A stretch of DNA of 64,000 nucleotides, taken from Escherichia phage KookSpook. The notes beneath the pieces were generated by a model that saw nothing but the letters and a program-made list of their open reading frames with translations, searched no databases and was not told where the DNA came from. Numbering within the stretch: the first letter of the stretch is position 1; each line of letters opens with the position of its first letter. Of this stretch, positions 32,860 to 36,070 are shown piece by piece. The stretch lies in the sequence record PP925842.1; one strand, given 5' to 3'. The position numbers and the translations under genes were made by a program.

Positions 32860-32945
32860 CCAGGCAGTTACGCCTCGCTGGGATTCGAACCCATTAAAAC
32901 AGCTCAACCGAGATAGTAGGTTTAATTTACTCTGACCATCAAATT
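32860..32945 (-). other. tRNA-like element (T-arm only, no acceptor pairing)
   Basis: tgggttcgaatccca T-arm-like hairpin without matching acceptor stem or CCA. Confidence 0.3.
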
Positions 32946-33022
32946 TGGTGCGTGACAAGGGATTCGAACCCTCAAAACCCGACTTCTAAGGACGGTATGT
33001 ATGCCAATTCCATCAATCACGC
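32946..33022 (-). tRNA. tRNA, tentatively Leu (TAG) with short variable arm
   Basis: acceptor gcgtgat/gtcacgc, T-arm gaggg-ttcgaat-ccctt, loop ctTAGaa, CCA encoded. Confidence 0.5.
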
Positions 33023-33027
33023 ATATT

Positions 33028-33106
33028 TGGTGGAGGATAACGAATTCGAATCGTTCTGATGTCCTCGGTGCAAGCGAGGTGTCCACTCCCAGCAGACCCA
33101 TCCCCC
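33028..33106 (-). tRNA. tRNA-Ala (TGC)
   Basis: anticodon arm cctcg-ctTGCac-cgagg perfect, T-arm aacga-ttcgaat-tcgtt, CCA encoded. Confidence 0.65.
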
Positions 33107-33344
33107 AAATTCTTTAGTTTACTAAGGCTATTAGCTCGGCGTAACTACAGCACCTTCGCTTCGAGCGGAAGGAACTACGTCATCTCGCAAACCCGATACA
33201 CTATTCAGTTGCCGCTGAATCTAGTGAACTAATCTAGAACTTCTCCCGAATCATAGGGATCGTGCTTTTTGGCAGCCAGTCCTAGGTCGAGCTAATACCT
33301 TAGTGAACTACGATGAGGATTTCTCCTCATCAATTTATATAAAT

Positions 33345-33373
33345 ATTATAACAAGAAATTAAGCATTAAGCAA
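33345..33373 (-). promoter_or_regulatory. strong early promoter (TTGCTT-17-TATAAT) internal to tRNA cluster
   Basis: attata 33345-33350, aagcaa 33368-33373. Confidence 0.6.
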
Positions 33374-33391
33374 CTAAGTTTTTCTTGAAAT

Positions 33392-33469
33392 TGGTGGGTT
33401 GCACAGGGCTCGAACCTGTAACCTATGGTTTAAAAGACCAGTGCTCTAAACCAGTTGAGCTAGCAACCC
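33392..33469 (-). tRNA. tRNA-Lys (TTT)
   Basis: acceptor gggttgc/gcaaccc perfect, D-arm gctc...gagc, loop ctTTTaa, T-arm acagg-ttcgagc-cctgt. Confidence 0.7.
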
Positions 33470-33637
33470 TTAGTAACCATTATATACCTCTTTAATAGAG
33501 TGAACTTTTAGATAAGAATGATTAATTCTGAACTCTGCCATTACTTCATTTTCATTTTTACCGTAATGAGCGAGTACAGATTTTACTGTGCTCTTACCTA
33601 AACGTTTGTCACTTACTAATAGTCGAAATACTTTCAT
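33470..33637 (-). CDS. small hypothetical protein
   Basis: 55-aa ORF not in track; AGAGGA SD before ATG 33637. Confidence 0.35.
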   Translation of the reverse strand: MKVFRLLVSDKRLGKSTVKSVLAHYGKNENEVMAEFRINHSYLKVHSIKEVYNGY

Positions 33638-33657
33638 CTCGAAATCCTCTATTAAAT

Positions 33658-33735
33658 TGGAAGCGGGTGCAGGAATCGAACCTGCCTCTTTCTAGCTTAT
33701 GAGACTAGCGATCTCTACCAGAGATCTAACCCGCA
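33658..33735 (-). tRNA. tRNA-Met/fMet (CAT)
   Basis: anticodon arm ctagt-ctCATaa-gctag, T-arm gcagg-ttcgatt-cctgc, 1:72 mismatch, CCA encoded. Confidence 0.6.
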
Positions 33736-33741
33736 ATTATT

Positions 33742-33817
33742 TGGTCAGTGCGGCAGGACTCGAACCTGCGACCCGAAGCATCCAAGGCTCCCACGCTACC
33801 AACTGCGCTACGCACTG
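33742..33817 (-). tRNA. tRNA-Pro (TGG)
   Basis: acceptor cagtgcg/cgcactg perfect, loop ctTGGat, T-arm gcagg-ttcgagt-cctgc. Confidence 0.65.
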
Positions 33818-33826
33818 TTAATTCTT

Positions 33827-34024
33827 TTATTGTGGAGGAATATTAATAATTCGTCCATCTACACAATATGCGGTACTAGGAATTGTACTGTATATGTAGA
33901 AATTTTTTATATTACTCTCTCCACCACAGAAATTTTTAGCAAATTCATATTCTTTATTAATGGTTGAATCAAACTTAAAGCAACCAGTAAGTAAAAGTAC
34001 GGACAGTAGTAAAACTTTTTTCAT
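33827..34024 (-). CDS. small lipoprotein
   Basis: 65 aa; signal peptide with lipobox LTGC. Confidence 0.45.
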   Translation of the reverse strand: MKKVLLLSVLLLTGCFKFDSTINKEYEFAKNFCGGESNIKNFYIYSTIPSTAYCVDGRIINIPPQ

Positions 34025-34056
34025 TTAGCTTTCCTTCTCAACACTTTATAAGATAT

Positions 34057-34085
34057 ATTATACAGAGAACTAAGCTAAATAGCAA
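34057..34085 (-). promoter_or_regulatory. strong early promoter (TTGCTA-17-TATAAT)
   Basis: attata 34057-34062, tagcaa 34080-34085. Confidence 0.6.
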
Positions 34086-34235
34086 ATACATTTTTAATAA
34101 ATTTACTTATTGTGTAGGCCACCTGGAGGTTTAACCCTCACGGCTGACAAAGAAGTTTGCGAGACTTCTCTTAAATGCCAGAATAGACCCGCCGATCTAT
34201 CGGAACCTACTCAATAAGTAAACTTTCTTTATTTA

Positions 34236-34330
34236 TAGGTCAATCTAGACAGGATTCGAACCTGCTATCACTTGTGCGGACTTACGAGAACCATTCTTTC
34301 ACTCGAATCGAACGAGATTCTGCCCTAGCC
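34236..34330 (-). other. tandem tRNA-like T-arm elements (degenerate tRNA-like)
   Basis: gcaggttcgaatcctgt and ctcgttcgattcgag hairpins; no full cloverleaf. Confidence 0.3.
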
Positions 34331-34482
34331 AAGCCGGTTTCCCCATCAACCGCGCTAGAATGTTTATTGTTTTCAGTGCAAGAGTCCGAGTCTAGGACAC
34401 GACCGCTTCGCAAGTACATAGGCAGCTTATCATGAGTCGGCACTTCCGAATTGCTAGCTCCGTGTTCTGCACTGAAATTTTG

Positions 34483-34556
34483 TATATCCACTAGGGCTTC
34501 AACCTAGAACCCTCCGCCTAGGAGGCGGTAGCTCTAACTAATTGAGCTATGGATGT
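34483..34556 (-). tRNA. atypical tRNA, tentatively Arg (CCT); no encoded CCA
   Basis: D-arm gctc-aattagtta-gagc, loop ctCCTag, T-arm ctagg-ttgaagc-cctag (non-canonical loop). Confidence 0.4.
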
Positions 34557-34557
34557 A

Positions 34558-34716
34558 TTAAATTACTTTTTCCAATTCATTAGCTATGGCTTTAATCTTT
34601 TCAAAGTTTACATCACTGATAACTATTCCTTCCAGAGCCATAGAAGCTCTGGCATTTTTCATAGCAGATTCATAGATTTTTTCTATTTCCTCTGGTGTAA
34701 ACTCTTTACGTTCCAT
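34558..34716 (-). CDS. small hypothetical protein
   Basis: track ORF 34558-34764 overlaps tRNA-Asp; internal Met start at 34716 avoids overlap. Confidence 0.35.
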   Translation of the reverse strand: MERKEFTPEEIEKIYESAMKNARASMALEGIVISDVNFEKIKAIANELEKVI

Positions 34717-34734
34717 AACTAATAAGCCCCTAAA

Positions 34735-34811
34735 TGGCGCGACCGATGGGATTCGAACCCACATTCTCTCCCGTGACAGGGGAGTACCATTACCAAGCCA
34801 GCCCCGGTCGC
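34735..34811 (-). tRNA. tRNA-Asp (GTC)
   Basis: acceptor gcgaccg/cggtcgc perfect, anticodon arm ctccc-ctGTCac-gggag, CCA encoded. Confidence 0.7.
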
Positions 34812-34820
34812 ATAATTTAT

Positions 34821-35006
34821 TTACTGGGATTTAAGAGTATTAATTGCTTCATTAAGCTCTTTAAGAAATTCTTTTCGTTCATTGAGTCTACGAAGGCTTT
34901 CTAGTAAATCCTGCTTTTGTTCTTCAATAAACATCTCGCTAACCATAATATTATTAATAGTGTTATCACGATGAACTTCTAGCTGTGCAATTACATTCTT
35001 GGACAT
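34821..35006 (-). CDS. hypothetical coiled-coil protein
   Basis: 61-aa ORF. Confidence 0.4.
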   Translation of the reverse strand: MSKNVIAQLEVHRDNTINNIMVSEMFIEEQKQDLLESLRRLNERKEFLKELNEAINTLKSQ

Positions 35007-35108
35007 GCTTGTTTCCTCAGTTATTAATGAAAATGGTATCTGCGGCTGAATTTGATATCAGCAATGACAACTGGTTGGTTGCCGGTTTACTTAACTCTAC
35101 GCAGAATT

Positions 35109-35191
35109 TGGCGGGCCGTGTAGGATTCGAACCTACGTTGTCTCTCGACATGGATTAACAGTCCACCGCCAAACCGCTTGGCTAACGACCC
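35109..35191 (-). tRNA. tRNA, tentatively Asn (GTT) with 13-nt variable arm
   Basis: acceptor gggtcgt/acggccc, anticodon arm gtgga-ctGTTaa-tccat, T-arm gtagg-ttcgaat-cctac, CCA encoded. Confidence 0.5.
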
Positions 35192-35198
35192 TAAAATT

Positions 35199-35274
35199 TG
35201 GACGACCGCATGAGATTTGAACTCACATAAAAAGGATTTGCAATCCTTCGCCTAAGCCATTCAGCCAACGGTCG
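35199..35274 (-). tRNA. tRNA-Cys (GCA)
   Basis: anticodon arm aagga-ttGCAaa-tcctt perfect, CCA encoded. Confidence 0.65.
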
Positions 35275-35276
35275 TA

Positions 35277-35567
35277 TTAATCTATTTCATAGTGTGTAGC
35301 TACGTGGTCTGAACCACATTTACCACATACTTTTTTACTAGTTTTAAGATAATAATCTTGATCTCCGCATTCAAAACAGATACATAATTCTTTTTGTTGG
35401 CCTTCAAGATTAAGGATCTCTAAGTCATCGAAGTTTCCCAGAGTACGAGTATAGAACCCATCCCCCGCATCATAGCCTGATTTACCACAATCACACATTT
35501 TAAATTCTCGAAGATGTGTGAAAATATGCTCAGAACCACAACACTTAAATTTAACTAATCTTTTCAT
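35277..35567 (-). CDS. Cys-rich zinc-ribbon-like protein
   Basis: 96 aa with several CxxC/CxC pairs. Confidence 0.5.
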   Translation of the reverse strand: MKRLVKFKCCGSEHIFTHLREFKMCDCGKSGYDAGDGFYTRTLGNFDDLEILNLEGQQKELCICFECGDQDYYLKTSKKVCGKCGSDHVATHYEID

Positions 35568-35596
35568 TTGCTTCTCCAGCTCAATTTATATAATTA

Positions 35597-35625
35597 TTAT
35601 ATAGAACTTTTAGAGATTAAGCAAC
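35597..35625 (-). promoter_or_regulatory. strong early promoter (TTGCTT-17-TATAAT)
   Basis: attata 35597-35602, aagcaa 35620-35625. Confidence 0.6.
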
Positions 35626-35904
35626 TACATTTTTTAGGAATTTGATGCCTTTCTTTTTCTTCTTATATTTCCATGTTAGGGAATTTTGTCTATTATGAAC
35701 GCTTGAGATCTTTGTCTCGTCAAAGTTCTTCAATATCATGTAATCACAAGATAGTTGTTCTAGTGGAATGTGATCACCGTCAAAAGCGTAAACATAAGGC
35801 TGTTGACTAGCACGATAATGATAGACTTTGTTAATTCTACGTTTTAATGACTTATCCGCACAATAGATAAAGAAATTTTTAGGATGCATCAGCATTTCCT
35901 TCAA
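35617..35904 (-). CDS. hypothetical protein
   Basis: 95-aa ORF. Confidence 0.45.
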   Translation of the reverse strand: MKEMLMHPKNFFIYCADKSLKRRINKVYHYRASQQPYVYAFDGDHIPLEQLSCDYMILKNFDETKISSVHNRQNSLTWKYKKKKKGIKFLKNVVA

Positions 35905-35906
35905 AT

Positions 35907-35981
35907 TGGTGCACCCTGTTCGAATCGAACGAACCTCTCAAGCTCTTCAGGCATGCGCTAATCCATCTCAGCTAAAGGTGC
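35907..35981 (-). tRNA. tRNA-Phe (GAA)
   Basis: T-arm gttcg-ttcgatt-cgaac perfect, loop ctGAAga, CCA encoded. Confidence 0.65.
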
Positions 35982-35987
35982 AAATTT

Positions 35988-36070
35988 TGGCAAACCTACT
36001 AGGACTCGAACCTAGACCGTACGGTTTTGGAGACCGACATGCTGTCCAGTAACACTCTAGGAATGCAGAA
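35988..36070 (-). other. tRNA-like element, unresolved (possible pseudo-tRNA)
   Basis: T-arm ctagg-ttcgagt-cctag and terminal GCCA, but no 5' strand pairs with the 3' acceptor. Confidence 0.35.

Follow-up and report, generated by a model that had tools for sequence, protein, structure and literature searches.

The 64,000 nucleotides (nt) of Escherichia phage KookSpook analysed here (record PP925842.1, hereafter the window) contain hairpins that look like the T-arm of a transfer RNA (tRNA) at places where no complete cloverleaf had been seen. A sequence-only reading had listed four such places (32860-32945, 34236-34330, 35988-36070 and 42330-42410), had found no 5' strand pairing with the 3' acceptor, and had considered decayed tRNA genes, processing signals or parts of other small stable RNAs. 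What, then, are these elements? All four lie on the minus strand, within the early tRNA gene region of a T5-like phage. Three were already known: one is a tRNA gene, and two belong to annotated T5 stable RNAs, RNA2 and RNAX. The fourth, termed LS, is annotated in none of the records examined and appears to be a new member of the same kind of RNA, with a distinctive permuted layout. We consider it probable that the elements have these identities and that the RNAs are excised by tRNA processing.

Four T-arm hairpins in the tRNA gene cluster of a T5-like phage

The phage is T5-like (Demerecviridae), and the window carries about 27 tRNA genes on the minus strand. ARAGORN reported 24 tRNA-type genes and Rfam 23 tRNA matches, all on the minus strand between ~29.9 and 42.4 kb. 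The 3.6-kb stretch around the elements is ~91-92% identical to T5-like phages of Salmonella, Escherichia and Klebsiella (Demerecviridae). The homologous region is annotated for T5 (AY543070) and, in a curated tRNA-region record, for BF23 (NC_042564). These two records list ~24-26 tRNA genes, small open reading frames (ORFs), HNH homing-endonuclease genes and misc_RNA features. Among the latter, rna1, rna2 and rna3 are labelled "tRNA-like ... RNA with unknown functions", and rnaI, rnaIII, rnaIV, rna2H and rnaX "stable RNA with unknown functions".

T-arm-type hairpins were indeed present at all four listed places, with the motif GGTTCGAATCC at 32881-32891, 34252-34262 and 42348-42358 and GGTTCGAGTCC at 36002-36012. 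With at most one mismatch, GGTTCGAATCC had 19 matches in the window, compared to 0.45 expected from shuffled sequences. Eighteen of the 19 fell inside the cluster at 30.4-42.4 kb, every one of them on the minus strand. The T-arm hairpins are thus genuine and far beyond chance. The motif reads nearly alike on either strand. The earlier reading had taken it on the plus strand and for this reason found no matching acceptor strand. Minus-strand acceptor stems are present at 35988-36064, in RNA2 and at 42337-42408, and the lack of a 5' partner was confirmed for 32842-32940. The original puzzle was therefore mostly a strand artefact. Since T-arm motifs are similar on both strands, the strand needs to be checked before a cloverleaf is called incomplete.

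Covariance models, which had been proposed as the check, separated the four places. The one at 35988-36070 was detected as a tRNA with a full cloverleaf (36.3 bits), which refutes the claim of an incomplete cloverleaf there. The one at 42330-42410 was formally detected (37.2 bits), with the whole anticodon arm skipped. Those at 34236-34330 and 32860-32945 matched no Rfam family, even at E ≤ 10 with short segments, beyond a 13-nt match to the T-arm motif.

The element at 35988-36064 is an ordinary decoding tRNA-Trp(CCA) on the minus strand, called by ARAGORN and by Rfam (RF00005, 35991-36064; gathering threshold 29 bits). It has a complete cloverleaf with a 5-base-pair (bp) anticodon stem and a 7-nt loop (CUCCAAA), G73 and an encoded CCA. 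Its low Rfam score is explained by two U.U mismatches in the acceptor stem, at pairs 2-71 and 3-70. A tRNAW gene of quite different sequence is annotated at the same syntenic place in T5 and BF23.

A homolog of T5 RNA2 with a second T-arm

The tandem hairpins of 34236-34330 belong to a homolog of T5 RNA2 at 34238-34362 (minus strand; ~95% identity to rna2 of AY543070). Here the surmise that the hairpins are parts of other small stable RNAs was correct, as it was for 42330-42410, which lies inside T5 RNAX. The range first given omitted the 5' third of RNA2, which extends to 34362. RNA2 and its surroundings are ~95% identical to T5 across an aligned 450 nt, and the downstream RNAIV and promoter P13a are conserved.

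On the minus strand RNA2 forms a cloverleaf. An acceptor of 7-8 bp (CATTCTAG/CTAGATTG, 34355-34362 with 34241-34248) is followed by a D-arm with GG in its loop (34335-34352), a 5-bp anticodon-like stem (GCTTG/CAAGT, 34330-34334 with 34270-34274), a 5-nt variable region and a canonical 3' T-arm (34249-34265). The 7-nt anticodon loop is replaced by a 55-nt insert (34275-34329), and this insert carries a second genuine T-arm at 34301-34317, with a 5-bp stem and the loop TTCGATT. The second tandem hairpin is thus real. Its stem occurs in three versions across phages (GCTCG/CGAGT, GCTGG/CCAGT and TACGG/CCGTA). A pairing proposed by RNAalifold for the tip of the insert was dropped; the T-arm hairpin at this place covaries.

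A covariance model of RNA2 built from six phages (R3) found exactly one site per genome at 39 loci, with 88-149 bits (142 bits in the window), whereas no ordinary tRNA scored above 32 bits. These loci include Epseptimavirus, Serratia phage Slocum, Enterobacter phage KKP_3711 and Klebsiella Sugarlandvirus. Among 21 distinct sequences, 96.8% of the cells were paired and 19 of the 40 pairs showed two-sided changes. None of 500 shuffles reached the observed values, and slid controls paired 35-46%. In Slocum and Sugarlandvirus the acceptor has a wholly different sequence, with pairing retained. The best-conserved portion of RNA2 is the insert, in which the stretches AATGG and TCTCGTAA-N-TCCGCA are near-invariant from Tequintavirus to Sugarlandvirus. 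The 3' tail reads ACC in the window, ACA in T5, ACT in BF23 and CCA in KKP_3711. In Klebsiella phage EK80, RNA2 begins 3 nt past the CCA of a tRNA-Leu, and tRNA-Pro comes next. Searches of the 13.5-kb region and of 121-nt and 381-nt segments at permissive thresholds (E ≤ 10) returned no Rfam family for RNA2. Complete E. coli genomes showed zero similarity to it at E ≤ 10, leaving a host homolog or an antisense target unsupported.

Two further observations concern RNA2 and its flank. In the record of Enterobacter phage KKP_3711 (L038, 1509-1578), an annotated "tRNA-Arg(ccg)" consists of the 5' part of the RNA2 homolog plus the internal T-arm. This is likely a mis-annotation, which may recur in other T5-like genomes. 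The 119 nt directly upstream of RNA2 (34363-34481, minus strand) differ from T5 at only 2-3 positions and are more conserved than their surroundings. They contain a long hairpin closed by CAGTGCA/TGCACTG (z-score -1.8), are unannotated in the records examined, and may be a further structured RNA or an RNA2 leader.

LS, a predicted, unannotated RNA between tRNA-Leu and tRNA-Ser

LS is a predicted, conserved structured RNA of 99 nt at 32842-32940 on the minus strand. It occupies the 112-nt spacer between tRNA-Leu(UAG) and tRNA-Ser(GGA), beginning 5 nt past the CCA of the former and ending 8 nt before the latter. Its covariance model (R1) scored 101 bits in the window and gave one match per genome at 36 loci in several genera. 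The position directly after tRNA-Leu(UAG) is constant in BF23, Erwinia KEY, Klebsiella EK80 (Sugarlandvirus), Eos and several metagenome contigs. In BF23, LS lies at 3777-3875 and was left unannotated in the curated record. T5 and Eps7 are without LS; the site is taken by the HNH endonuclease gene hegC in T5 and by a small ORF in Eps7. In Rfam searches with short segments (E ≤ 10) no LS family was found, and the single match was a 13-nt one on the plus strand, to the T-arm motif itself.

LS has neither a conventional acceptor stem nor an anticodon arm. From its 5' end, GATG (32937-32940) pairs with CATC (32842-32845) in an almost invariant 4-bp closing stem, which encloses a variable hairpin region (32900-32934), a T-arm (32879-32893), a loop-capped, acceptor-like helix (32859-32878) and a D-like hairpin (32847-32859). 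The T-arm has four Watson-Crick pairs and an invariant T-loop, and its stem occurs in three paired states (TGGG/CCCA, CAGG/CCTG and CGGG/CCCG). The capped helix abuts the T-arm directly. It has seven levels (GCGAGGC with GCCTGGT around the loop GTAACT; 6-8 nt across the loci) and shows compensatory changes in 2-3 pairs, with exchanges of A-U for G-C and of G.U for U-A. Among 16 distinct LS sequences, 93% of the cells were paired and seven pairs changed on both sides; none of 500 shuffles attained the observed covariation score. The D-like hairpin (3 bp, TGY and GCA around a 7-nt loop with G-rich positions) showed one-sided changes only. For this reason, and because the closing stem is nearly invariant, both remain tentative. 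An extended 6-bp 3' hairpin was set aside as the main fold in view of the covariation, and a derivation of LS from the 3' half of the adjacent tRNA-Leu was discarded, as no similarity between the two is visible.

Several side observations on LS were made. A candidate 5-bp loop-loop pairing would join CGGTT of the variable hairpin (32900-32934) with AACTG of the capped-stem loop (32866-32871). The partners are CTGTT/AACAG in Erwinia KEY and L023, a compensatory change, and the pairing fails in Klebsiella-type sequences. A divergent and apparently degraded LS copy was found in metagenome contig L039. The GGCATCATC repeat at 40139-40162 is a coding repeat of a plus-strand ORF, unrelated to the elements described here. 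This ORF (39942-40370) carries a tandem coding repeat rich in Gln, Met and Pro (CAGATGATGCCTCAACAG...) and shares a 9-mer with LS, to which it is unrelated.

The RNAX module and the RNA1 and RNA3 homologs

The fourth place corresponds to a tRNA-like module at 42337-42408 (minus strand), ~60 nt from the 5' end of an RNAX homolog and within rnaX of T5 and BF23. By comparison with rnaX of AY543070 this homolog extends approximately over 41754-42470 (minus strand), its ends being set by homology only. T5 RNAX is annotated as a stable RNA of 719 nt, with tRNA-Arg(UCU) at its end, and this tRNA gene likewise lies downstream of the homolog in the window (41677-41753).

The module has a 7-bp acceptor stem (GCCGATC/GATCGGT), D- and T-arms, and a 3' tail AAGAGC without CCA. 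The Rfam alignment skips the anticodon arm, setting 18 model positions against 18 unaligned bases. These 18 nt, CAAGCCGTAACTGGTGGA, allow no more than a 3-bp stem with a 6-nt loop. The call "tRNA-Ser(act)" made here by ARAGORN was rejected as forced. In the homolog of one Klebsiella Sugarlandvirus a 6-bp stem with a 5-nt loop stands at the position of the anticodon arm. Mean column identity of the module to T5 was ~97%; the rest of the rnaX region was aligned by eye. Compensatory changes in the acceptor and T stem distinguish the window, T5 and BF23 (A-U to U-A, U-A to C-G and C-G to U-A). Among eight distinct sequences three pairs changed on both sides, and in half of them one acceptor position is mismatched (T.T). 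The leader directly upstream of the module at ~42415-42470 (minus strand), GTGGGGTGTGGAAATCACTTATGTAGTAACACT, with a counterpart at 15573-15620 of L036, is conserved between Tequintavirus and Sugarlandvirus at least as well as the module.

Two more T5 RNAs have homologs on the minus strand. The putative tRNA-like RNA3 homolog (35034-35105, from the comparison with T5) directly follows tRNA-Asn. Its acceptor TCTGCG/CGCAGA is followed by TACCA, and its T-loop is degenerate. Read directly off the sequences, the acceptor differs from that of T5 (TCTGTG/CACAGA) by a compensatory change. The tRNA-like RNA1 homolog (~32494-32637, aligned to rna1 of AY543070) directly follows tRNA-Ser(UGA) and has compensatory changes in the acceptor (GGAATA/TGTTCC vs GAAGTA/TGCTTC) and in the T stem. 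Relative to T5, ~115 nt are inserted between the RNA1 and RNAI homologs (~32380-32495, minus strand), and they include a long inverted repeat, GCCTAGCTAT...ATAGCTAGCC. Judged by their predicted folds, at least five elements in the cluster are tRNA-shaped and non-decoding.

Selection, processing and possible function

Compensatory changes keep the helices paired across genera, which indicates that the structures of RNA2, the RNAX module and LS are under selection. As far as sequences can tell, they are maintained structured RNAs and not decayed genes. None of the three has a 7-nt anticodon loop, so they cannot decode. Each has a tRNA-like spacing (3-8 nt) from its neighbours in the tRNA array, and they would be co-transcribed with the tRNAs in polycistronic early precursors. 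RNase P and tRNA 3' processing recognise the stacked acceptor/T-arm and the D/T elbow. Since the elements present these features, they are predicted to be excised like tRNAs. Judged by their anatomy, the acceptor/T-arm/D-arm modules would be substrates of the host enzymes, with RNase P acting on the 5' side, followed by 3' trimming and possibly CCA addition. Excision would yield compact, nuclease-resistant stable RNAs. That RNA2 and RNAX build up as stable species during T5 infection is taken from the annotation wording of the T5 and BF23 records; no full-text description of the T5 stable or tRNA-like RNAs was found in the literature searched. The excised RNAs might then mimic tRNAs and occupy some factor that recognises the tRNA elbow or acceptor. 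This last step is speculative and, taken alone, has perhaps one chance in a few of being right.

Several points weigh against this account. LS is dispensable, because T5 and Eps7 lack it, and its expression is a prediction. The covariation of LS and of the RNAX module rests on few independent lineages, and the alignments used for pair counting, having been fitted to the models, are biased towards the structures modelled. Finally, deletion mutants of T5 in the tRNA gene region reportedly exist; the title of Glukhov et al. 2018 suggests that they are viable.

It is possible, although we hold it to be somewhat unlikely, that RNA2, the RNAX module and LS serve as punctuation in cis only. By their tRNA-like shape they would attract RNase P and 3' processing, so that the long early transcripts are divided into tRNAs and mRNAs of the small ORFs; what is cut out would itself be functionless. 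The tRNA-like spacing beside tRNAs and ORFs fits such a role, as do the dispensability of LS in T5 and Eps7 and the absence of a function from the T5 annotation. However, the 55-nt insert is not needed for RNase P recognition and is yet the most conserved part of RNA2, while the acceptor changes completely, and a second T-arm would be unnecessary for mere punctuation. Strong conservation of an insert that is dispensable for processing argues for a function of RNA2 beyond punctuation.

RNA1, RNA2, RNA3, the RNAX module and LS of T5-like phages might act in trans as anticodon-less decoys or sponges for host factors that recognise the elbow or acceptor. Candidate targets would be tRNA-directed defence nucleases and repair or processing enzymes. 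LS would then be a circularly permuted mimic of the YrlA type, encoded by a virulent phage without a Ro60 partner, and RNase P might cut its capped-stem loop. We regard this joint reading as doubtful.

Quite unlikely is the idea that a leaky intrinsic terminator or attenuator makes up the 3' part of LS and modulates read-through into the tRNA-Ser genes. A terminator scan flagged 32862-32844 (minus strand), where TGGTGC-GATAGAG-GCATCA forms six pairs before the T-rich tail TCTTATTATT. However, the T tract of this tail is interrupted. In GCC[T/C]GG, the T/C column at which the terminator hairpin would begin changes together with its capped-helix partner (A-U to G-C); in Klebsiella-type sequences it is mismatched with the base opposite it in the terminator hairpin. 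Moreover, the downstream tRNA-Ser genes depend on read-through transcription.

Improbable, too, is that the elements are decaying tRNA pseudogenes, one of the origins suggested at the outset, as relics of duplication or of rearrangements that homing endonucleases brought about. The cluster is a mosaic with HNH endonuclease genes, LS alternates with hegC or a small ORF, half of the distinct RNAX module variants carry the T.T acceptor mismatch, and the copy in contig L039 looks degraded. Decay is disfavoured by the compensatory changes in the helices across genera, by the persistence of canonical T-loops, and by the single copy per genome at a fixed position. The last alternative, that RNA2 gives rise to a decoding tRNA once a short anticodon-loop intron is removed (spliced loop e.g. 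GCUAGGA), is hardly credible: the insert leaves exactly at the anticodon-loop position and most variants would give a UAG or GAG (Leu) anticodon followed by G (G37), but position 33 is invariably C and not the near-universal U, the anticodon is inconsistent (variant L049 would yield UUG), and it is the full 125-nt species that AY543070 annotates as the RNA2 stable RNA. Neither E. coli nor T5 is known to splice tRNA introns of 50 nt.

Neighbouring tRNA genes

Both tRNA genes that flank LS are on the minus strand. tRNA-Leu(UAG) (32946-33022), called by ARAGORN and Rfam, has 77 nt, with a 5-nt variable region and without a long variable arm, unlike the 85-87-nt forms of T5, EK80 and Eos. According to the BF23 record (NC_042564), the short tRNA-Leu form is an amber suppressor once its anticodon is changed. 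tRNA-Ser(GGA) (32747-32833) corresponds to tRNAS2 of T5 and BF23.

Three T5-annotated minus-strand genes were missed by ARAGORN and fell below the Rfam tRNA threshold, with only sub-threshold tRNA-Sec matches: tRNA-Ser(UGA) at 32645-32735 (37.6 bits), tRNA-Ser(GGA) (19.7 bits) and tRNA-Gly(UCC) at 30986-31059 (30 bits). Rfam also misses tRNA-Ala(UGC) (33028-33106) and tRNA-Arg(CCU) (34482-34556), and ARAGORN a CAU tRNA at 37771-37845.

Significance

RNA2, LS and RNAX have no Rfam family of their own. RNA2 and LS show clear structural selection across Demerecviridae genera, and coordinates, structures and covariance models are now provided, which makes both ready targets for annotation. Some host defences act by cleaving tRNAs, and phages oppose them with tRNAs of their own: those of T5 rescue infection from the PARIS defence (PMC11464382) and also, according to a citation in PMC10644984, from a retron. 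Within this T5 cluster lie several tRNA-shaped RNAs that cannot decode, and their significance would grow if these mimics did join the contest between phage tRNAs and tRNA-targeting defence.

Comparison with known systems

The closest relatives of the window elements are RNA2 and RNAX of T5 and BF23, of which the window copies are direct sequence homologs with conserved position and strand. They differ from these by substitutions, several of which are compensatory. The RNAs annotated for T5 and BF23 do not include LS. The elements resemble canonical tRNAs in their T-arm and in D-arm features (GG in the loop); RNA2 and the RNAX module also have an acceptor stem of 7 bp. The 7-nt anticodon loop of canonical tRNAs is missing from RNA2, LS and the RNAX module, most have no encoded CCA, and LS has no open acceptor stem.

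Stable RNAs within a phage tRNA cluster are also found in T4, whose species 1 and 2 RNAs (rnaC and rnaD) are matured from tRNA precursors. T4 belongs to a different phage family from the T5-like phages. RNase P, RNase Z or the CCA enzyme also recognise further tRNA-shaped modules with no ordinary decoding role, namely the tRNA-like domain of transfer-messenger RNA (tmRNA), the tRNA-like RNAs of gammaherpesvirus 68 and mascRNA. They are unrelated in sequence to the window elements and differ in architecture and hosts.

LS invites comparison with YrlA. A read of the LS sequence showed neither a Ro60-binding helix nor a GNCGAA motif. The closing stem has only 4 bp, the UA linker between capped stem and D-like hairpin is missing, and the D-like hairpin is weak. 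The rsr gene is absent from the T5 and BF23 region annotations (no domain scan of the window proteins was run), and to our knowledge no rsr gene is known in T5-like phages. Because the Ro60 helix and GNCGAA motif, a long closing stem and a known rsr gene are all missing, LS was not classed as a member of YrlA. What LS appears to share with YrlA is its layout. Its arms appear to follow in the order closing stem, variable hairpin, T-arm, capped acceptor-like stem, D-like hairpin and closing stem, and the tRNA-like module of YrlA is a circularly permuted tRNA with a closed acceptor stem (PMC4201824; bioRxiv 10.1101/312249). RNase P cleaves the capped stem (7 bp) of YrlA from Mycobacterium smegmatis, and CCA is added to it (PMC4201824); the capped stem of LS likewise has seven levels.

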